Source of the DNA: a virus
Reading direction: 5' to 3' (one strand)
Length of the DNA stretch: 64,000 nt
Virus record (IMG/VR): IMGVR_UViG_3300015196_000001
Part shown: positions 3,747-54,341 of the stretch, in pieces
Layout: each line of letters begins with the position of its first letter
Position numbering within the stretch: the first letter of the stretch is position 1
Translations under genes and position numbers: made by a program
Notes under the pieces: generated by a model
Databases searched by the model: none
Seen by the model: the letters and a program-made list of their open reading frames with translations, nothing else
Told to the model about the DNA's origin: nothing

Positions 3747-4137
3747 CTTGGAAGTCTTCCAAAAGAAATAGGTTGTCAAACTCCTCAATTTGCTTTTTAA
3801 CAGACCTTAGGTTAGCTTCAACTAAGGCGACAGTCGCCTTAGCCGCTGCAATGAGGCGTTCATGTTTGAGCAGTTCACTGGTGGCATTCTTATAAAGTTC
3901 AAGGTTGACAATGGCCATCTCCTTGAGGTTCTTATACTCAAGGAAGATGACGCATTTTTTGGTACTACGTAAGAAGGCTAATTGCTCAATCGCGTATTTT
4001 TTAGTTGCTTCAATCGTGAGAAGCGCCTCTTTTTGTTTTGTTACATTTGCTTGGGCACCCCGAATTTCAGACCTTACCTTGCTCAGTACTTCCTTGCCGT
4101 CCTTGAATTTGCGTTCCAGCCCATCCAATGTATCCAT
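3733..4137 (-). CDS. Hypothetical coiled-coil protein
   Basis: 134 aa, K/E/L-rich heptads, tightly coupled to its neighbours. Confidence 0.7.
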   Translation of the reverse strand: MDTLDGLERKFKDGKEVLSKVRSEIRGAQANVTKQKEALLTIEATKKYAIEQLAFLRSTKKCVIFLEYKNLKEMAIVNLELYKNATSELLKHERLIAAAKATVALVEANLRSVKKQIEEFDNLFLLEDFQDDDN

Positions 4138-5270
4138 TAAAGGTCAAACCCTTCGTAAGGAGAAATGATCTTTTCTAGAGAAGCATCGGCATCGGTGGTA
4201 GAATCTACGGTGATAATGCGTAGGTCACCTACCACATGAGCGGCAGTGCTCTCCCAGATGGTCTGGCCGCAAGCGCTTGCCTGGATACCGATAGATACAG
4301 AGAAAGCGTCAGGTGGGATTAGGCACGGATTGGTCATAAATACAGCTCCTGGGAAGCGAGCCTCCGACCTGACATGGACATGACCAGTAGTAAATACACT
4401 ACACGGCTTTTGTCCAGATGCAACAAAAGCGGAATTGATTTTGTTGATCTGACCTTCAATTGATTTGGTATTGATAGCACTGCCTGGATTCCCTGGGTTG
4501 AGTGCGGTATCTCCATGTGTTGCAAAACCAAAATTCTTGAAGATGGGGTATACGTAAAAAGACGACTTAGGGATAATTACTTTTACGTTAGGTAGATGGG
4601 CGGTACTAGCCTTAACGCTAAGGTAGACCATTGTCTCATAGCTGTCCCACTTCTCCTTAATAGCTCGACCTGCGTGCCGATCCTTGCGTCGTCCATGGTT
4701 GCCTGTTACACAATATACTGAGATACCGCGTGGGAAACGCGCAGCAAGGTAAATCAGACCTTGGGTAATATACTGTATCGAAGCCGCTACCTGATCCGCC
4801 ATCGTAGTACCATCACGGGCATCATGCAACATACCCTGAATGATGTCACCATTCAGGTGCACATTAAGAGAGGTTTCGTTACGGTACTGTGACTTAAAAT
4901 CACCTGTCTCTACAATGACTCTACCAAAACGTCGCGCCTCTTCGTGAGGGCCATAAACGAGAGGGGTGTCTTTGCCGTCTAGGTTAGCCCCAAAGTGCGT
5001 ATCGCTAATGATTAAATTGATTTGGCGCTCGATAGAGTGATGCTTGAGCTTCTCTACCTTGGGTGAGCCCCACTTGATACTAGACATTACCTTACCGATT
5101 TTCTCGGTAATAGTGTCAATCTTGTAGGTGTCACGAGCAAGGCCCAAGTTCACCTTCTGGGCCTTGCCGTGATTTAGCTTTTGCTGATCAAGAGAGCCCC
5201 TGGCTCGGAATTCTTCGTAAAGTCGGTCTTCTTCAGCCCCTTGCTCTTGCTTAGCCTTGGACTTACTCAT
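4137..5270 (-). CDS. Calcineurin-like metallophosphoesterase
   Basis: ISDTHFG, NGDII, GNHG, HGD and GHVH motifs in the canonical order. Confidence 0.85.
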   Translation of the reverse strand: MSKSKAKQEQGAEEDRLYEEFRARGSLDQQKLNHGKAQKVNLGLARDTYKIDTITEKIGKVMSSIKWGSPKVEKLKHHSIERQINLIISDTHFGANLDGKDTPLVYGPHEEARRFGRVIVETGDFKSQYRNETSLNVHLNGDIIQGMLHDARDGTTMADQVAASIQYITQGLIYLAARFPRGISVYCVTGNHGRRKDRHAGRAIKEKWDSYETMVYLSVKASTAHLPNVKVIIPKSSFYVYPIFKNFGFATHGDTALNPGNPGSAINTKSIEGQINKINSAFVASGQKPCSVFTTGHVHVRSEARFPGAVFMTNPCLIPPDAFSVSIGIQASACGQTIWESTAAHVVGDLRIITVDSTTDADASLEKIISPYEGFDL

Positions 5271-43330: not shown

Positions 43331-43420
43331 GCCCAAAGCGTAATCTTAGGTAGATGACTCCAACTTTCATTCTTTACAGGCCTTTTGATCCACGAGATAG
43401 GCAGCTATGGTACGTGTCAA

Positions 43421-46400
43421 ATGACAAATAAAATACCGAAGGGCTTGATCCTCTCAGGGTGCGCGGCTAGTAGTGCTATCGATAGCAGTGGCGAGATATT
43501 GGACATTGAAGGAGCAGATATTAGCGACCTAGAAGAGGGTCGCGGTGTACTCAATTATGAACATGTCAATGACAAAGATAAAGGTGCCTCCTTTAACTCT
43601 ATCATTGGTAGGATCATTTTCGCTAAGAAATTGTTCAAATTAGGCGATTGCTCTACCGACGATGAACGTAAATTTTGGAATCAAGTCAAGCTTCCAATGA
43701 TCTATATCCAGGTCGAACTATTCGACGAGGAGGGGCACCCTGGAGCCGTAGCCGCAGCCGCGATGCTTCGTCACTACGCAGCTCGCGGTTTACCGATGCT
43801 CCAACGTTACAGTATTGAGGGGTCCACCTTAGAACAAGACGGTCAAAAGATCAAGAAATCGATTATAAGGCGCGTTGCATTAACAACCAAGCCGTGTAAT
43901 AGGTCTTGTCATTCCGGCATCTTGGAAGATCCTAAAGCCCCAAAAGGACCAGAAGCTGAAAAAGATCCACTGGAAACTGGTAAAGCAGAAGAGCACCCCA
44001 GTTATCGTAAACTGGGGGGCAGCGTGGAATTGGAGTGTGACCCAATCTGCAAGATGGAAGAGCTTGAGCTTGACTCAGACACACTTCGAGCTAATGCCTA
44101 CCTAAAACTACAAACAATCAAGAAGGCAATTACCGCAGGCAACTACAATGCTGCGCCCGGTTCCCTTACCCAAGGTGCAGCGTTGCAAGTGGAAGACCGC
44201 AACCTGCACAAAGCTCGTTTTAAGAATCAGGTCATGGCCGTGTGTCGTGACTATCGTAAAGAAGACCATGGGGATCTTAAAGCATTTCTAAAGCACCGTC
44301 TTCCCGAGGCTGATCCTGAGTTTATTGATACTTTTGCAAGGCTAGTCAGTGAGTATTCGGTTAAGAAGACAGAGGCTTCAGACAATGAACTAACCAAGGC
44401 CTTGACCTCCCCACCCAATGACGTTAAAGGGAAGACCGCCAAGCCCGAGGCTATTAAGGCTCCTGCTGTTATTGGGCTAAAGTCACCTCGGCAATTACTA
44501 GCTCATCTGCCGGCTGACGAGCCATGGTTTCACGACGACTCAGGCACTCTTAATGTACCTGCCTCTGGCGGCAAAGAGCCTTCTCCACGTAAGCTACACA
44601 AAATATATATTCCGGGTGAAGAGTTCAAAAACTTGATGGATGACCCCTCCGTAACTGTACCACATGAGCATGCTGTAGCTAACTGGCAGAACGTTAATGA
44701 CTTGATGACGCAGAAGCAGACTCCACCCCGTGTATCTATGCTTGCCTCACTACTAGGTTTTTTCTCAGCTAACGAGGGCGTGCCCGTTCAGGAGTTAGCG
44801 GTAGCTCATGCAATGGACATGATCAATGGAGGCTATGATCCGTCTAAGGGGCCTATGACCCCAGAGCAGGAGCTGGAGTTGCGTCTACGCTGGTCATCTC
44901 GTATCCCGCCTGAGTACGAGCACGATTCGATGAGCACTCGACCCGACTTACGTATTAAGACCAAAAAGGATCCTAACTTTGGTCAGATGAAACTGGTCGG
45001 TTTGCCTGATGGTAAGACCCGTGCACTAAATTCTTATCATCGGATGAACGATCGTATCATGGACCTGATTTCTCAACACGGTAATAATGGTCGTGCTATT
45101 GTAGGTGAGCTGGTCAAAGACAAAGTAGCTTACGAAAATTGGAAAAAGCATGCAAAAGGACAGGAGACTGAGTACAAAGGTATAGCCTTTGACGGTATTA
45201 AAAACAAGATCCTGCGCTATACCACAGCTATGATGGGAGCGGGCAACATCCATATACCTGATACCCACTTTCTTAGACACACATTCGGATTAGCTCATGG
45301 TAAGGATAACCAGATGATTAAGGATGTCGTCTGGAATGAGAATAACGCACATCTATTAAATCAAATTGATAAGTATTACTACGCCCACCATCCAGCCGTA
45401 AGGAAGACCATCGATAAGTTTTTTGGTGGAGTCGCCAATGAGCAGGCCATCTTTCCTGCTTTCTGGTGGCACTGGTTGACTATTGCCGCAGATGAAAAAC
45501 GTCGTGGACTAAAAACAGGTTCGCAGCATAATGACGGCACCGATCACGCAGTCTTCTTTAATGGTATCCATAAAACCGTTCAAGATACTTTGCATAGATA
45601 CGGCATCCCATCTCATACTCCTGCGCTCGATAAGGCAGAAGGCGTATACCCAATCCCAGGCATTCATCATGTACCAATTGAAAATCGAGTTGCTTATGCG
45701 ACTGAGGATCTTCGTCAAAAGTATGGAGAAGCAGCCGCAAGTTGGGCCATGTATGCGTATATGTATCCAGCTATTGAGGCAGCCGATCGCGTGGATTCCC
45801 TAAAACAAACCGCCGTTCAGAAGACAGAAGAGTTAACCATTCAGCTGAGCTACGTTGCTAAACTCCTAAAGGGTGATCCTTTAGCCGATCAGCTTTATGC
45901 CGACCTAAAAGACGACTTCCCCTCCCCTTCCCCTCCCAAAAAGATTGTATTCAGAGGAGCTGTAGTTCGCCCAGGAGAAATGCATGGTATTGGTAGTTCT
46001 GTTAAAGGACAGAAATTCCATATTTTAGGAAATAGAGATGGTCACCATATTGTGGTTCCTTGGGATAAGATTCTAGACTTTACTCACGCTGATCTCAAAA
46101 GTGTTAGACCTGAAGACGTTGGGACCAAGTTTAAGCTCATTAACCCCTTTGAATTAGAACCAAACAGTTCAAGTAGCACCATAATATCTGGTTTTCATGG
46201 TATTCCTCGATATATGCGTCATCCAGAACAAGCAGCTCTCATAAATGGGACTGACGTATCCGCACCTGAAGTAGCAAAAAGTAACAGTGGAGTGAACCAA
46301 TATTGTAGCCATTGGCGTAAAATGGGGAATGGTAAGCTTGGTTACATTAAAGAGACTGATGGTAAAGGTAAAAATCAGTTATCGGAGGCACATTCCGAAG

Positions 46401-47104
46401 CACTTGCTTATAACGTCGCCAAGTCGATGGGGCTAGGGCATTTTTACCCCACCACATCTGTCTTTATTCATCCAGTGACGGGTCGGCCTACTAGCGTTAT
46501 GGAGGCCGTGTCTGGAGGCCGTCACCGAGAAGGCTCCAGCAGTCAGCTGCCTGGAGCCCCCGTGCAGGAACAGCGCGACATGTTACATTTCCACGCCAAA
46601 TCGGGTGATTTACAAAAATTAGCGCTACTTGACCAAATTATGGCAAACAACGACCGACACTCTGGTAACTATATGTTTGCACATGGACAGACTCCGTCAA
46701 TTATGATGATTGATCATGGCTTCACTTTTGCTGAAGACAAGGAATCTGTTTCTAGTCCTGGATATCTTCGAGACGAAGACCCACACTGGATGAATCGCTC
46801 GATTCATCCAGAAGCATTAAAGTGGTTACTTGCACAGGATGCAGATAAATACGAAAATTTGCTTCTCGACCATGGAATGCAGGGCGAAGCTAAACCATTC
46901 GCCAATCGCCTTCGGAACCTTCAACAGGCGACAACTGGTTATGGGCCATGGGGACCTGAAATGTCCTTCGGCGCCTTGCGCGAGGGGGTTGACCCCTCTC
47001 CACCGCCTTTGTCATGGCAGTGGAGTACAAACCGTGAGGTAAACGATCATCTTCCTGGTTGGACTGAGCAGGAAGAAAATCTGCAAAGACGAATCGATTC
47101 GTAA
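43421..47104 (+). CDS. Prohead protease fused to a capsid N-arm mimic, an HhH-like domain and a PI3/4-kinase-like domain
   Basis: Likely start ATG 43421. LILSGCAASSAIDSSGE, LNYEH, YSIEG, VALTTKPCN (HK97-type prohead protease); IPDTHFLRH; IKE..SEALAY..DQIMANNDRHSGN..IDHG. Confidence 0.8.
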   Translation: MTNKIPKGLILSGCAASSAIDSSGEILDIEGADISDLEEGRGVLNYEHVNDKDKGASFNSIIGRIIFAKKLFKLGDCSTDDERKFWNQVKLPMIYIQVELFDEEGHPGAVAAAAMLRHYAARGLPMLQRYSIEGSTLEQDGQKIKKSIIRRVALTTKPCNRSCHSGILEDPKAPKGPEAEKDPLETGKAEEHPSYRKLGGSVELECDPICKMEELELDSDTLRANAYLKLQTIKKAITAGNYNAAPGSLTQGAALQVEDRNLHKARFKNQVMAVCRDYRKEDHGDLKAFLKHRLPEADPEFIDTFARLVSEYSVKKTEASDNELTKALTSPPNDVKGKTAKPEAIKAPAVIGLKSPRQLLAHLPADEPWFHDDSGTLNVPASGGKEPSPRKLHKIYIPGEEFKNLMDDPSVTVPHEHAVANWQNVNDLMTQKQTPPRVSMLASLLGFFSANEGVPVQELAVAHAMDMINGGYDPSKGPMTPEQELELRLRWSSRIPPEYEHDSMSTRPDLRIKTKKDPNFGQMKLVGLPDGKTRALNSYHRMNDRIMDLISQHGNNGRAIVGELVKDKVAYENWKKHAKGQETEYKGIAFDGIKNKILRYTTAMMGAGNIHIPDTHFLRHTFGLAHGKDNQMIKDVVWNENNAHLLNQIDKYYYAHHPAVRKTIDKFFGGVANEQAIFPAFWWHWLTIAADEKRRGLKTGSQHNDGTDHAVFFNGIHKTVQDTLHRYGIPSHTPALDKAEGVYPIPGIHHVPIENRVAYATEDLRQKYGEAAASWAMYAYMYPAIEAADRVDSLKQTAVQKTEELTIQLSYVAKLLKGDPLADQLYADLKDDFPSPSPPKKIVFRGAVVRPGEMHGIGSSVKGQKFHILGNRDGHHIVVPWDKILDFTHADLKSVRPEDVGTKFKLINPFELEPNSSSSTIISGFHGIPRYMRHPEQAALINGTDVSAPEVAKSNSGVNQYCSHWRKMGNGKLGYIKETDGKGKNQLSEAHSEALAYNVAKSMGLGHFYPTTSVFIHPVTGRPTSVMEAVSGGRHREGSSSQLPGAPVQEQRDMLHFHAKSGDLQKLALLDQIMANNDRHSGNYMFAHGQTPSIMMIDHGFTFAEDKESVSSPGYLRDEDPHWMNRSIHPEALKWLLAQDADKYENLLLDHGMQGEAKPFANRLRNLQQATTGYGPWGPEMSFGALREGVDPSPPPLSWQWSTNREVNDHLPGWTEQEENLQRRIDS

Positions 47105-47214: not shown

Positions 47215-50200
47215 ATGGCTGTTTCTACTTTACATGATCTTTATCGAGTTTATTTGACTACCCCGCAAGAGGACGGTAATGTAAACTATCGGCTTGCGGG
47301 TAGGTTTGCTTTGCACGGGGATCAACTAGATATTCTAGAAGACCATATGGGTGTCATTGCCAGTAACATTCACGAAGGTCACGTCAACGTGAGGACACGG
47401 CAGGCTATTGAGGCACTTAAGCATTCCGCTTATATGAAAATAGTAAGTGAACACAGCCTTAATTCAGGTGAAGACACTGACCTAATTGAGCCACTTGACG
47501 GAGGTGAAGGTCTTGCTTCCCCTGTTGTTGAGGGAACCACTATTCCTCAAGCACCAGCTGATGTATTTCACTATTACCATGCAGGTATGGAGCATCCACA
47601 GGTACTTGAAGCAATCGATGATAAGGTACTGATGAATGGTAACGAGCTTGCCCCAGATGAAATGGAACAAGTAATAGCCAACATCCAAAGCGGGAACGCC
47701 TCGCTACGTTATCCTAAAGCCCCTGTAGGAGAAAGAGTGCTCAAAATGGAACAAGCACTCGAAGAACTATCTAAAGTAGAAAAGACTATTACTCCTGCTA
47801 TGCGGGAGTTACGAGCCGCTGTTGACTCAGGGCATATTAGCCCTGAGTCGCTTAAGGTAATCACCCATCACATGTTTGTCGATGCAATGGTGCCAGGAGT
47901 AGGCAATCGTTTTGCATACCGTGACTTCCTTGCGCGTTCTAAAAAGGGCATTCATGTACGTATTGACGCCAATGACTTTGGTGGTATCAATAAAGACCAT
48001 GGCTTTGAGACAGGCGATGGAGCTATTAGAGCTTTAGGTGGCGCCCTACGTGCTTCAATGGACAATGCAGTAGGACAGAAACACGGAAAATTGTTTCGTA
48101 TCGGTGGAGACGAATTCCATGCGTTTGTTCCCAATCACGAACAGGCAGCTCGTTTCCTGAGAACAGCTCGCGAGCAGCTTGGTAGTATCCCACCTATCGG
48201 CGGAACACACAACCTCTCTTTCTCCGCTGGCATGGGTCCTTCACCATTTCATGCAGAGGCTTCTTTAATGGCAGCTAAGAGGGCCAAGAAGAGCATGGGG
48301 TACTTGTTGGGTCAAGCAAAGAACCATGTATATAGCAGCACTTCAGGTCATATTCCTATTGATACTGATAAGCCACCTTTGATCCCTCCACCACCAGAAG
48401 CAAAGGGAGTACCTGCACCTACTGTTGCTGACGTAGCTGTAGGTATGCCGCCTCCTAAGCAAGAGATCCCACTTCAGGAAGTCCAGAAAGCCGAGGGTGC
48501 TGATTTTTTAGCCCAGGTGCAGGACCAGCTGACGGACGATCTACGTAAGCCAAGATATCAGGGCAACGTAAATCCTATGGCTGGACACTGCTATGTTGCC
48601 TCAGAAGCAATGTACCATTTGTTGGGTGGAGTGCGAAGTGGCTATACACCACAGCAAATCAACCATGAAGGTGAGAGTCACTGGTATTTGCGACATAAAG
48701 AGACAGGCAAGATACTAGACCCTACTGCCAACCAGTTCGAGACACCTGTGCCATACGAGAAGGGTCGCGGAAAAGGTTTTCTTACAGCCCACCCCTCAGT
48801 ACGTGCCCGCACTGTTATCGCTGGGATCACTAAAAAACACGGTCCTCAAGTAAAAAAGGCAGAACCAGAAGACTTGAAACCACTCTCAGTGGTGAGTAGC
48901 GTGGAGAAGGTGCCTACCAAGCCAGCCAACGGTCAACCGATGTGGTACCAGGACGAGACTTCCTCGTCTCGTTTTCCCAGTCAATTTAACCCCAAACTTG
49001 CTGAGTGGAAAGAGAGCTATATTGGCGCACTCAAAGAGTATTTCGGGAAAAACCTGAAGCCGGTCAAGATCAGGGTGGCGACGGCAGTCCCCAATAACGC
49101 TATTCACAAGCCTGACCGACGCGACCTGTATAGTGAGATGATCAGGAATGGGGCACCTATCCCGCCTGTAGTAGCCAGCCCCTACGACCCGTTACAAGGT
49201 GGTCATCAAATAAAAGATGGGTCACATCGCTTAGATGCTGCACAGAGAGCCGGTTTAGAAGAGATAGATGGATATGAGATAGTTCCATCTGAGGTCCCTC
49301 CTCAGTTCAACCCCAATCTCATCGCATCGTCTCCGCAACCCGAAGTAGACCAGTACCGATTTATGCGTGATGTAGCAGGTCGTCTACCCTGGGAAGCAGG
49401 GTTCACTAAGACTGAGATTAACGAGAAGCTTGACAAGCTGTTGAGTTTGGGTGAAGATGTTGAAATGCAGAAGTCCGAGCCCAGCCCGCGCCAGTCAAAC
49501 CCTGCGCCTGCGAACATCGAAGCATATATGAATCAGGACCCCTCGGCGCGCTTTGACCACACCTCCCCAGAGCCCAAACGACCAGTTTATACGTTTGGGC
49601 CTATCGGGCATACTCGTACACTTCAACGACAAGTACCACTTTCTAATTTATATCTTGCACATCATTCGGTTAATCCGTTAAAACCAGATACTATGGATTC
49701 TTTGCAAAATGACCACCCATCTAAATACCCACCGATTTCAGTCATTATTGACGAACCGGCTGCTTGGCCTGAATGGCTTAAGCTCAACAAACAACCTCTT
49801 GATCCAGCTCATCCAAAATTATTTGTGAATGATGGTCATCATCGCATTCGCGCCGCCAATAACCAAAAAGTGTCATCTATCTTAGCGGATGTACGAGAGA
49901 AACCAACTGACAGGGCTCATTGGCGTGATGAGGATATCGTAAAGTCCGAGCCCGCCGCGCTGGAGAAGATGGCAGCTCTCGACCCGAACGCGGGCTACAC
50001 GTTCGAGTACGGCCCCTACCCGCACGGCCCGTCGTGGGCCGACCCCATGGTGCAAGTGACGGCACACCATAACGGGCAGCGGGTCGGGCACGTTACCTTC
50101 TCCGTTAATGGGAATACCATGAAGCCCTGTAACGTAGAGGTCGTCTCGGAGCATCGTCGCAAAGGCCTCGCGAGCGCTATGTATGCCCACGCGGAGAGTA

Positions 50201-50394
50201 AGGCATGGGGGCGGAAGATCGTGCCGTCTGGCATGCAGACCCCAGACGGGCAGGCTCTCTGGGCAGGCAATGAGCGAGACAAGCAATTCGGGAAGGTTGA
50301 GCCCACGAAGAAGGCGTCGTTCATTTGTCCAAAATGTCTGGCGAGGTACGCGGAGAATGGAGCCTGCAACTGCCCGCCGACGAAGAAGCTTTAA
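47215..50394 (+). CDS. Polyvalent protein: GGDEF + papain-like + two ParB-like + GNAT + zinc ribbon
   Basis: DANDFGGINKDHGFETGD..RIGGDEF; GHCY..HWY..LDPT; DGSHRL and DGHHRI; HRRKGLASAMY; CPKC..CNC. Confidence 0.8.
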   Translation: MAVSTLHDLYRVYLTTPQEDGNVNYRLAGRFALHGDQLDILEDHMGVIASNIHEGHVNVRTRQAIEALKHSAYMKIVSEHSLNSGEDTDLIEPLDGGEGLASPVVEGTTIPQAPADVFHYYHAGMEHPQVLEAIDDKVLMNGNELAPDEMEQVIANIQSGNASLRYPKAPVGERVLKMEQALEELSKVEKTITPAMRELRAAVDSGHISPESLKVITHHMFVDAMVPGVGNRFAYRDFLARSKKGIHVRIDANDFGGINKDHGFETGDGAIRALGGALRASMDNAVGQKHGKLFRIGGDEFHAFVPNHEQAARFLRTAREQLGSIPPIGGTHNLSFSAGMGPSPFHAEASLMAAKRAKKSMGYLLGQAKNHVYSSTSGHIPIDTDKPPLIPPPPEAKGVPAPTVADVAVGMPPPKQEIPLQEVQKAEGADFLAQVQDQLTDDLRKPRYQGNVNPMAGHCYVASEAMYHLLGGVRSGYTPQQINHEGESHWYLRHKETGKILDPTANQFETPVPYEKGRGKGFLTAHPSVRARTVIAGITKKHGPQVKKAEPEDLKPLSVVSSVEKVPTKPANGQPMWYQDETSSSRFPSQFNPKLAEWKESYIGALKEYFGKNLKPVKIRVATAVPNNAIHKPDRRDLYSEMIRNGAPIPPVVASPYDPLQGGHQIKDGSHRLDAAQRAGLEEIDGYEIVPSEVPPQFNPNLIASSPQPEVDQYRFMRDVAGRLPWEAGFTKTEINEKLDKLLSLGEDVEMQKSEPSPRQSNPAPANIEAYMNQDPSARFDHTSPEPKRPVYTFGPIGHTRTLQRQVPLSNLYLAHHSVNPLKPDTMDSLQNDHPSKYPPISVIIDEPAAWPEWLKLNKQPLDPAHPKLFVNDGHHRIRAANNQKVSSILADVREKPTDRAHWRDEDIVKSEPAALEKMAALDPNAGYTFEYGPYPHGPSWADPMVQVTAHHNGQRVGHVTFSVNGNTMKPCNVEVVSEHRRKGLASAMYAHAESKAWGRKIVPSGMQTPDGQALWAGNERDKQFGKVEPTKKASFICPKCLARYAENGACNCPPTKKL

Positions 50395-52054: not shown

Positions 52055-52912
52055 ATGACTTTCAAAGACAATGAACTAAAGGCACTTCTAGCCGAAGTGT
52101 CAGCTGACCTAGAAAAAGCGATGGCATCTGAAGCGAATGAGCTTCGCAAAGCCATTGGCGACGAACCCGGTGAGGAAGACCCCTCAGCAGCCCCTGATGC
52201 CTCGGCACCAGAAGGCTCTGCAACCGCAGCTGACGCAAGCCCGGCACCTGCTGACGGCTCAGCGTCTCCCGGTCCAGAGGCCTCAGCGTCTCCTGGTGGG
52301 GACATGGGTCCAGGTGATGGCTTAGACCCTGCCGCCGATGCAGCTGTAGACCCTGAGGCGCTTAAGCAGGAATACATGAAGCTAGGACCCGAAGGAATCA
52401 AGGTCCACTTTATGGCCTGCAAGGCAGCCGCAATGGAAATGGTTGGTGGTGGTGGTGACCCTGCCGGTGCACCCGCCCCGTCGCCTTCACCCGCCCCTAT
52501 GGCACCTCCTGGTCCTGGTGCAGGCCCCGGCGCTCCTGGAGTAATGAAGGATGAACGCCTAATGAGTATCCAGCCTAAGGGAAAGATTACAAATGGGCCC
52601 GACCGTCTAGCTGACATTGCTGTCACTAAGTCGGAAAAGGAAATTGACTCACTTCGTGCCCAGGTTGACCTCCTTTCAAAGGCGATCCACGAAATCGTCG
52701 GTAAGCCGATTCGCAAGGCTGTCACTGAGGTTGAATTTAATGGCAAGCCTGAACTACCGACTACTACCAAGTTACTATCTAAGTCGGAAGTAACTGCCAA
52801 GCTTAAAGTCGTAACGAGCCGTCACGATCTAGCTAAGGGCGACCGCGAGCGAATTAACCAGTACTACGATGGTCAAGTAACCATCGAAGGAATTTCGGAT
52901 CTTTTGAAATAA
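52055..52912 (+). CDS. Capsid scaffolding protein
   Basis: Acidic A/P/G/D low-complexity protein directly upstream of MCP; many xxK|A/S/G sites (LEKA, LRKA, VTKS, LSKA, IRKA, LSKS, LAKG). Confidence 0.7.
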   Translation: MTFKDNELKALLAEVSADLEKAMASEANELRKAIGDEPGEEDPSAAPDASAPEGSATAADASPAPADGSASPGPEASASPGGDMGPGDGLDPAADAAVDPEALKQEYMKLGPEGIKVHFMACKAAAMEMVGGGGDPAGAPAPSPSPAPMAPPGPGAGPGAPGVMKDERLMSIQPKGKITNGPDRLADIAVTKSEKEIDSLRAQVDLLSKAIHEIVGKPIRKAVTEVEFNGKPELPTTTKLLSKSEVTAKLKVVTSRHDLAKGDRERINQYYDGQVTIEGISDLLK

Positions 52913-52943: not shown

Positions 52944-54341
52944 ATGGCGAACACACTAGAACAGCTACAGAGCCTTGTTAAGGCACTTGCGGCGGGCAGC
53001 TACAACGCAGCCCCTTCAACCCTAACTCAAGGATCTGCACTACAGGTCGAGGATCTATCACCGGTAATGAACAATGTTACCTTCGATGATTCTCATATTA
53101 AGCTTCAGAAGATACTAAAGGTCACGCCATGCAAGTCAACACTTGCCCAGTTTGATCGTCAGCTTAGCTACGGTATCTTCGGAGGTAGTGCTCAGCTCGA
53201 AGGCGCTATCGGTCAAGAAGAGACTAGCGATTTCGTACGTGTCGTGGTTCCAATTGCGTTCTACTCTCACGTACGTAAGGTAACTCTGGTTGCCAACCTC
53301 GTCGAGACTATCGACGGTAAAAAGGCAGAAGAGCGCGCCGCAGCTGACGCCGCTAAGAAGCTAGCAGCCGATATCGAATTCGACCTCTTCCGTGGTAAGG
53401 AAGCCTTTACGAACGTAGGCGTGTTCGACGGCAACCCTCTACAGATTCCGCCTCTTCCTAACGTTCTCGGTCTAGATACCCAGATCCGTCAGTCAGATGG
53501 TCAGCGTATTGCTTCGGACCTGATGTTCGCTGAGTACGGTTCAGACGACTCAGTTGTCATTGCCGGTGGTGGTACTCTTGCCCAGACAATGATTGAAGAC
53601 TCTGCTGTCCGCTCAGCCATGAACCTCGGCAACGCAGACAAGCTCGTAGTTGACCCCAAGGTTCTTTCGGCTTACAACAAGCTTATCTTCGCCAACCAGC
53701 GTATGGTTTGGGGTGGAAGCTCACCTGTCGATGCAACTGGTGCCGATCTTCGTCGCCAGTGGGTATCTGGCGGTACCGTCAACATCGAGGCAAGCCGCTT
53801 CCTGTCCGGCAAGTCAAAGGCCGCTCCTGCACGTAGCATCGGTCCCCTTCCTCCTGTTTCGGCAGTCGGTACGCCCGGCGCAGGTTCAACTGGTCTAGCT
53901 GCCGGTGTTTACATTTACGCGGTCAGCTCATGCAATGAAATGGGCGAGTCGGTCCAGGTCGTTTCTGCCGGTGCAACCCTAACCGCTGGGCAACAGACCA
54001 GCCTAGTTATCACTCACCCCGCCTCAGGTATCGTACGTTATTTTAACGTGTACCGTACCGCAGTCGGCGGGCTCGTGACTAAGTTCATCGGACGCATTGC
54101 AATCAATACCGCAGCCGGTGCAACCACTACCACCTTCCTCGACCTTGGAAACAAGCTCCCTGGATTCGTAACTGGTTTCCTACTCGAAGGCGACACTATG
54201 GAGATTCGCGAACTAGCTCCTTATAGCCGTCTAAAATTGGCTGTGGTGGATCTCAGCCAGCCCGAGGCGCACTTTAGATTTTTGACTCTATGTGTAACTC
54301 AACCGCGCAAGAATGTTTTGATCGACAACCTGATCGGTTAA
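52944..54341 (+). CDS. Major capsid protein (SPO1/Twort-like precursor)
   Basis: Short propeptide ending LVK|ALAAG..QGSALQVEDL, analogous to the KS|FTTG..AGALRRE start of Twort-like MCPs; 465 aa; followed by a terminator. Confidence 0.85.
   Translation: MANTLEQLQSLVKALAAGSYNAAPSTLTQGSALQVEDLSPVMNNVTFDDSHIKLQKILKVTPCKSTLAQFDRQLSYGIFGGSAQLEGAIGQEETSDFVRVVVPIAFYSHVRKVTLVANLVETIDGKKAEERAAADAAKKLAADIEFDLFRGKEAFTNVGVFDGNPLQIPPLPNVLGLDTQIRQSDGQRIASDLMFAEYGSDDSVVIAGGGTLAQTMIEDSAVRSAMNLGNADKLVVDPKVLSAYNKLIFANQRMVWGGSSPVDATGADLRRQWVSGGTVNIEASRFLSGKSKAAPARSIGPLPPVSAVGTPGAGSTGLAAGVYIYAVSSCNEMGESVQVVSAGATLTAGQQTSLVITHPASGIVRYFNVYRTAVGGLVTKFIGRIAINTAAGATTTTFLDLGNKLPGFVTGFLLEGDTMEIRELAPYSRLKLAVVDLSQPEAHFRFLTLCVTQPRKNVLIDNLIG

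Follow-up and report, generated by a model that had tools for sequence, protein, structure and literature searches.

We found that the prohead protease encoded in a 64,000-nucleotide stretch of viral DNA (IMG/VR record IMGVR_UViG_3300015196_000001; hereafter the window, meaning the whole stretch) carries, inside a 1239-residue fusion protein, an internal copy of the N-terminus of the phage's own major capsid protein (MCP). The likeness of the two peptides is far beyond chance. Other phages have the copy as well: it belongs, as an ancestral module, to the phrog_1028 proteases paired with SPO1-type (phrog_752) MCPs and is no invention of the window phage, and the observation is solid and phylogenetically broad. 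As for its function, which is inferred, we place about even confidence in a reading in which the copy, as a mimic of the MCP N-terminus, lets the protease dock in the procapsid and is cleaved at the same bond as the MCP, while fused cargo rides along.

The duplicated capsid-protein N-terminus

The copy in the protease fusion (positions 44123-44197, + strand) reads KAITAGNYNAAPGSLTQGAALQVED and lies in frame, as residues 247-271 of the open reading frame (ORF) 43385-47104; its MCP counterpart (52980-53054, + strand) reads KALAAGSYNAAPSTLTQGSALQVED and forms residues 13-37 of the MCP ORF 52944-54341. Translation bore out the duplicated peptide proposed in the initial annotation of this DNA, with 19 of 25 residues identical between the two segments. 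In a BLASTP comparison with the MCP, protease residues 1-346 aligned over 236-271 with MCP residues 2-37 (23/36 identical, E 3e-11); since this match reaches protease residue 236 and MCP residue 2, the propeptide side was copied too. The 36-residue copy is composed of a propeptide-like helix, a predicted IKK↓A scissile bond (↓ marks a cut or predicted cut) and the N-arm motif AGxYNAAPxxLTQGxALQVED. The features concerned are as follows.

44090..44197, + strand: 36-residue internal copy of the MCP N-terminus, protease residues 236-271 (sequence comparison, motif hidden Markov model (HMM), BLASTP)
44123-44128, + strand: codons of the predicted scissile bond K247↓A248 in the protease copy
52944..54341, + strand: major capsid protein, SPO1-type HK97 fold, 465 residues (phrog_752, PDB 9vel)
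52947..53054, + strand: MCP residues 2-37, covering the short propeptide (1-13), the predicted cut LVK↓A (K13↓A14) and mature N-arm residues 1-24

Scored with BLOSUM62 across all six frames of the window, the two copies gave 100 against each other, and no other place reached 35. With the motif HMM they had E values of 4e-19 and 2e-17, and the best remaining match in the window had 0.5. A third copy, sought in the window with both scans, was thus not found, and by the HMM scan the other large multi-domain or cargo-like proteins of the window's head region lack the motif. At the nucleotide level the two copies are identical at only 50 of 75 positions (67%), which indicates that the duplication is not recent.

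The MCP matched phrog_752 over residues 4-463 (E 3e-41) and SPO1 Gp6.1 (PDB 9vel) both in sequence (E 2e-19) and in fold (E 3e-28, TM score about 0.7), and solved capsids of this type allow the cut to be placed. PDB chain 9row (439 residues) is the phi812 MCP from S25, and its VVK24 aligns with LVK13↓A14 of the window; since the chain begins at S25, the depositors' mature phi812 protein starts after VVK24. The longest SPO1 capsid chain, 9vel_B, has 445 residues (468-23), which fits a cut behind LNK23, a mature SPO1 protein that begins with A24 and an arm that is ordered in the capsid. By alignment, K13↓A14 of the window MCP is the predicted propeptide cut, homologous to phi812 K24↓S25 and SPO1 K23↓A24. 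In phage K virions, SFQTGYGITPDTQIDAGALR is a prominent tryptic peptide (PMC5258805), indicating that the N-arm is retained. The initial annotation had both window peptides start at a common xxK↓A site; cleavage itself is not readable from the sequence, but the position of the site is backed by homology with the solved capsids.

Distribution and co-variation of the copy

The closest cultured phage, Myxococcus phage Mx1 (59% MCP identity), encodes the same 1239-residue fusion with its own copy, KAMEAGNFNAAPSTLQGGSALQSES, matching its own MCP, KAMEAGNFNAKPSTLVQGSAMQIED; the Mx1 genome announcement is silent on this protein (PMC10720576). Related MCPs are encoded in 50 IMG/VR loci. A second copy was present within 10 kb in 29 of the 50 loci which, together with Mx1, gives 30 carriers, and all 30 second copies sit in proteins with the same N-terminal protease domain. 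The copy lies between residues 210 and 523, with a variable linker in front of it and a small conserved helical domain behind it, in proteins with total lengths of 384-1424 residues and C-terminal parts of about 90 to 1200 residues. Seven more loci hold a diverged copy detected by the HMM, so that 37 of the 40 loci holding a protease gene carry it (the protease ORF of L024 is cut by the contig end). In L029 (8214-8708; likewise L031) and L033 (4764-5270), the catalytic and helical domains and the MCP motif are kept and no copy is detectable in the protease. Most of the metagenomic relatives (L005-L048) have the protease gene on the strand opposite to the MCP gene and 2-4 kb upstream of it, and the part of the protease that follows the helical domain differs widely in length, in some of them with Gly/Pro-rich or Lys-rich stretches.

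The copy extends well beyond these relatives. It is carried by the cargo-free proteases of about 256 residues of SPO1, CP-51, phage K, Listeria phage LMTA-34 and Bacillus phage Taffo16; in phage K, FMK↓SFLTGHGTSPDTQVDAGALRKE of the protease corresponds to VVK↓SFQTGYGITPDTQIDAGALRRE of the MCP, and in SPO1, LDK↓SLEAGYEVDPEKMEGGDVFRKESL to LNK↓ALEAGHTVNPLDLEGGGAFRVESL. A tblastn search with the phage K MCP 37-mer returned 1384 places in 722 records, mostly of Herelleviridae and about two per genome, and most carrier proteases of this type are about 256 residues long and without cargo. In Pseudomonas phage Touem01, a protein annotated as hypothetical (L057:8406-9290) was identified as a phrog_1028 head maturation protease (E 4e-30), and its residues 199-233 are a 63%-identical copy of the N-arm of its own MCP. 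The initial annotation had staked its proposal on conservation of the peptide in homologous proteases, and the peptide is conserved in them.

The copy is not a general feature of the S78 family, as HK97 gp4 has no C-terminal copy of gp5. A separate similarity was seen between the gp4 N-terminus, DGKQGIFEGYASVFNNTDSDGDIILP, and the gp5 maturation junction, DGKQGTFGAKTFNK↓SLGSDADSAGSLIQP (L058:3348-4025 against 4028-5185; 14/31 identical, E 0.018 in a single comparison), which may be chance.

Within each phage, the copy follows the phage's own capsid protein. Across 28 distinct Mx1-like genomes, protease and MCP copies from the same genome shared a mean of 14.5 of 25 residues, versus 13.2 of 25 for non-self pairs, a difference reached in 0 of 10000 permutations (p<1e-4). 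Rare residues are common to both copies of a genome, such as K at position 11 (L005), PDS (L017 and L047), and M and N (L048). In the comparison across clades, 19-22 of about 34 residues were identical in self pairs and 7-15 in non-self pairs. The invariant positions K, A-G, P, L, G, A-L and E are common to the protease-copy and MCP families.

Codon comparison addressed how this likeness is kept. Among 405 identical residues in the 28 genomes, 154 are encoded by the same codon, versus 180 expected from codon usage; as same codons are no commoner than expected, the likeness is kept by selection on the protein and not by gene conversion. Gene conversion or recent duplication as its source was ruled out by these codon counts, at or below expectation, together with the 67% nucleotide identity. 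Judged by these comparisons, the within-genome likeness is one of co-evolution, not recombination. The proposal that the peptide mimics the MCP N-terminus thus holds up: it is conserved, it co-varies with each phage's own MCP, and its K↓A bond aligns with the cuts of solved capsids.

Domain layout, predicted cut sites and possible function

The first ~330 residues of the window protein correspond to a whole canonical protease, and ~900 further residues of enzyme domains follow. The relevant features are listed here.

43385..47104, + strand: prohead protease fusion ORF, 1239 residues as listed from TTG 43385 (weak N-terminal match to phrog_1028; PI3/PI4-kinase-like C-terminus)
43445..43930, + strand: catalytic domain, assemblin / S78-like, about residues 21-182, with H60 and S143 (FSIEGS) invariant
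44198..44368, + strand: small conserved helical domain, residues 272-328, the end of the canonical protease, closing at VKK↓T (K328) (alignment columns 800-890; model helices)
44369..47104, + strand: appended cargo, residues 329-1239, with a kinase-like C-terminal domain and further φxK↓ sites near K750 and K813
52055..52912, + strand: scaffolding protein, 285 residues; six [LIVMF]xK[AS] sites; the C-terminal ~45 residues form a conserved domain

The true start of the fusion is likely ATG 43421 (residue 13) instead of TTG 43385, judging from the alignment of homologues, which begins there. The AlphaFold2 (AF2) model of residues 1-346 had a predicted local distance difference test score (pLDDT) of 85-98 across residues 22-181, and helices at 266-289, 296-305 and 311-341 in and around the helical domain. 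H60 and S143 are invariant in 27 aligned homologues and, by analogy, are the putative catalytic residues. A Foldseek search of PDB with the catalytic domain returned as top matches almost exclusively herpesvirus proteases and T4 gp21, all weak (E 0.05-0.4, TM score 0.35-0.45). The match to phrog_1028 (head maturation protease) covered residues 19-66 only (E 1e-5); a Pfam search with the N-terminal protease domain and a sequence search of the window protease against PDB gave no match. In addition, tblastn ties the window protease to annotated prohead proteases of Mx1, CP-51, JL and others, and its relative SPO1 gp3.2 matches Pfam PF04586 (Peptidase_S78) at 23.7 bits (cut-off 21).

The scaffolding protein indicates what the protease needs in a substrate. 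Its ORF occupies the position of the annotated scaffold gene in SPO1 and CP-51, and its C-terminus, LSKSE..KSDRE.IN.YY....I.HLLK, is kept across Mx1-like loci. It contains six [LIVMF]xK[AS] sites versus 1.04 expected, a number reached by 0 of 500 shuffles, and many xK↓S sites are visible in the SPO1 and phage K scaffolds. As the six scaffold sites lack the long motif, the motif is not required for cutting, and the enzyme most likely cuts φ-x-K↓A/S without need for the next 24 residues. If cutting is independent of these 24 P' residues, their conservation in the protease must serve something else.

The reading we favour, docking of the protease by the mimic followed by cleavage, would supply such a role. 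During procapsid assembly, the unstructured copy would be bound by whatever binds the uncleaved MCP N-terminus, which by precedent may be the scaffold C-terminal domain, another N-arm, or both, and this binding would build the protease into the core. The active protease would then cut the copy at the MCP-equivalent K↓A bond, freeing the catalytic domain. In the window phage and its Mx1-like relatives, the ~900 residues of enzymes (kinase-like and others) behind the module would enter the head with it, and a cut at K328 after the helical domain would free the cargo, leaving an 81-residue fragment of mimic and helical domain that corresponds to an ordinary protease tail. The precedents come from other scaffold-dependent HK97-fold phages: the procapsid of 80alpha has the scaffold C-terminus bound to the N-terminal helix or N-arm of the MCP (PMC5644958), and so does that of SPP1, where released N-arms also pair with one another in antiparallel fashion (PMC6813328). 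A common partner or homotypic pairing predicts identical, not complementary, substitutions in both copies, as observed. Both copies are modelled with low confidence in the monomers (pLDDT below 50 at residues 249-256 and 261-272 of the protease and at N-arm residues 10-46 of the MCP), as would be the case for a trans-binding segment. Binding of the copy in cis to the catalytic domain was considered and set aside, since pLDDT is below 50 for most of the copy in the AF2 model, an argument that is weak and not decisive.

Several points weigh against this reading. The binding partner of the mimic stands at candidate level: a three-chain complex prediction (MCP residues 38-465, the C-terminal 90 residues of the scaffold and protease residues 231-300) scored 0.00, which speaks neither for nor against binding and is no verdict. 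The cuts at K247 and K328 in the window phage and Mx1 are predictions from sequence motifs, and occasional ancient gene conversion may have contributed to the co-variation. Protease homologues in the L029/L031 and L033 lineages have no detectable copy, so the copy is dispensable in some backgrounds, and Bacteroides phage DAC19 and Chryseobacterium phage MA9V-3 showed none at distances of up to 10 kb from the MCP gene.

The long fusions provide information on the fate of the cargo. In the window protein, Mx1, L002-L004, L009 and L044, φxK↓ sites are conserved at K247, K328, near K750 and near K813/844, and the sites flanking the mimic module are conserved in 7 of 7. Motifs of the form [LIVMF]xK↓[ASGTM] stand at domain boundaries in 6-7 of the long fusions (K328↓T, 44366-44371; K750↓A, 45632-45637; K813↓T, ~45821-45826), a pattern which suggests a polyprotein that is cut into defined pieces. 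The predicted 81-residue fragment of mimic and helical domain is as long as the tail that follows K↓S in SPO1 gp3.2. Conservation of the K328 site predicts that mimic and cargo separate, so that the mimic is not the neo-N-terminus of the cargo; the cargo is probably severed from the mimic there and, if the sites are used, would exploit the protease's entry route before cleavage and not carry the mimic afterwards. Adjoining the fusion, at 47215-50394, is a 1059-residue protein with GGDEF (PF00990, E 1e-7) and GNAT domains and a weak ParB-like match, and without a copy of the MCP motif.

These data bear differently on the alternatives. It is possible, if doubtful, that the copy is purely a substrate mimic, in which case the enzyme would read a long P' segment, and the linker copy would serve self-cleavage or a pseudo-substrate delay without any docking. 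Both copies do follow the same φxK↓ bond, fit to one enzyme would also explain the co-variation, and self-processing of prohead proteases is established for T4 gp21 and HK97 gp4. However, the scaffold sites lack the long motif, so it is not needed for cutting; the copy is not packed on the catalytic domain in the AF2 model (pLDDT below 50); and a need for at least 24 P' residues would be unusual among assemblin-type proteases. The idea of the initial annotation leads instead to a model in which the cut at K247↓A248 leaves the mimic as the new N-terminus of all the downstream cargo, which would dock in the mature lattice by means of this address or retention tag. The mimic does lie directly behind the predicted cut, and a lattice site exists, as the mature SPO1 N-arm is ordered from its first residue (9vel_B, 445 residues). 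Against this, the copy is ancestral in proteases of ~256 residues that have no cargo, and the other cargo-like, multi-domain head proteins of the window lack it, which does not support an address invented for internal cargo; the K328 site, present in 7 of 7 long fusions, predicts that the kinase fragment is cut away from the mimic; and in a complete lattice each N-arm site would already be filled by a neighbouring subunit. We consider this version unlikely, and the cargo-address idea is only partly right.

Two further explanations carry far less weight. An extra MCP N-terminus could act as a decoy that titrates a host immune sensor of the capsid protein, as capsid proteins or the prohead protease are in general known to be sensed by some defence systems, with nothing specific to this locus. 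The copy, however, is fused inside a structural enzyme, always at one position with respect to the catalytic and helical domains, and is kept in phages of Firmicutes, Myxococcus and Pseudomonas, hosts that differ greatly in their defences; a decoy role is therefore highly improbable. For chance resemblance, or a functionless recent duplication or gene conversion, the shortness of the match is the single point in favour, and the HMM values (E 1e-17 to 1e-19 against 0.5 for the next best), the nucleotide identity, the codon counts and the conservation across phage families refute it, leaving it virtually no probability.

Docking followed by cleavage also permits a broader proposal, which we put forward tentatively and think rather improbable in its full form: the N-terminus copy may be a portable, phage-specific head-entry tag that zips onto the scaffold or the MCP N-arms in the procapsid, would load anything fused behind the protease module and is then released by the protease, a device that Mx1-like phages may have exploited for kinase-type enzymes.

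Comparison with known systems

The proteases of Herelleviridae (SPO1 gp3.2, phage K ORF42 and CP-51 gp32; phrog_1028, Peptidase_S78) are the closest parallel, with a homologous catalytic domain, a K↓-preceded copy of their own MCP N-arm and the small helical domain; the window protein, Mx1 and five other metagenomic relatives differ from them in running ~900 residues further, into enzyme domains. A full-text literature search, limited in reach and with older subscription literature outside it, found no description of an MCP copy in these proteases. The copy is thus an apparently undescribed, old part of the protease.

The protease-scaffold polyprotein layout of herpesvirus pUL26, lambda C/Nu3 and P2 gpO is established, and the window protein resembles it in its order of an N-terminal protease with weak assemblin-type fold matches, a predicted release site and then a putative procapsid-entry segment. 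In those polyproteins, however, the targeting segment is the capsid-binding C-terminal tail of the scaffold, whereas in the window it is a copy of the MCP N-terminus; unlike the pUL26-type sharing with the scaffold, the separately encoded window scaffold (52055-52912) gave no match to the motif HMM. HK97 gp4 belongs to the S78 family, whose profile PF04586 is matched by the SPO1 homologue of the window protease, and the C-terminal part of gp4 is reportedly needed for encapsidation according to Duda and colleagues. It differs in that this part has no similarity to gp5, and HK97, with a delta domain of 103 residues, lacks a separate scaffold.

Two peptide-based delivery systems are also comparable. 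The T4 capsid-targeting sequence, like the proposed mimic, is an element processed by the head protease that delivers proteins into the head; it is an N-terminal leader removed at L/I-x-E, whereas the window copy is internal (residues 236-271 of 1239), lies mostly downstream of the predicted φxK↓ cut and is part of the protease itself, and so it is not an N-terminal leader of the T4 type. Encapsulin cargo-loading peptides resemble the proposed mimic as short unstructured peptides on cargo that bind the inner face of an HK97-fold shell, and encapsulin shells were among the fold matches of the MCP model. They are, however, C-terminal and unrelated in sequence, and they copy no part of the shell protein.

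Protease entry into the shell is known for few systems: the tail of HK97, scaffold fusions in herpesviruses and lambda, and the core of T4. A large phage group of medical relevance (Staphylococcus phage K / 812, Listeria A511-like phages, SPO1, myxophages and some Pseudomonas phages) looks to use a different entry device, a co-evolving copy of the MCP N-terminus, which would explain how the giant protease-enzyme fusions of Mx1-like phages are packaged. The element is 25-36 residues long, mutable, and addressable in the well-developed systems SPO1 and phage K; if the docking proposal is true, the same tag could bring designed cargo into the heads of phage K or SPO1.

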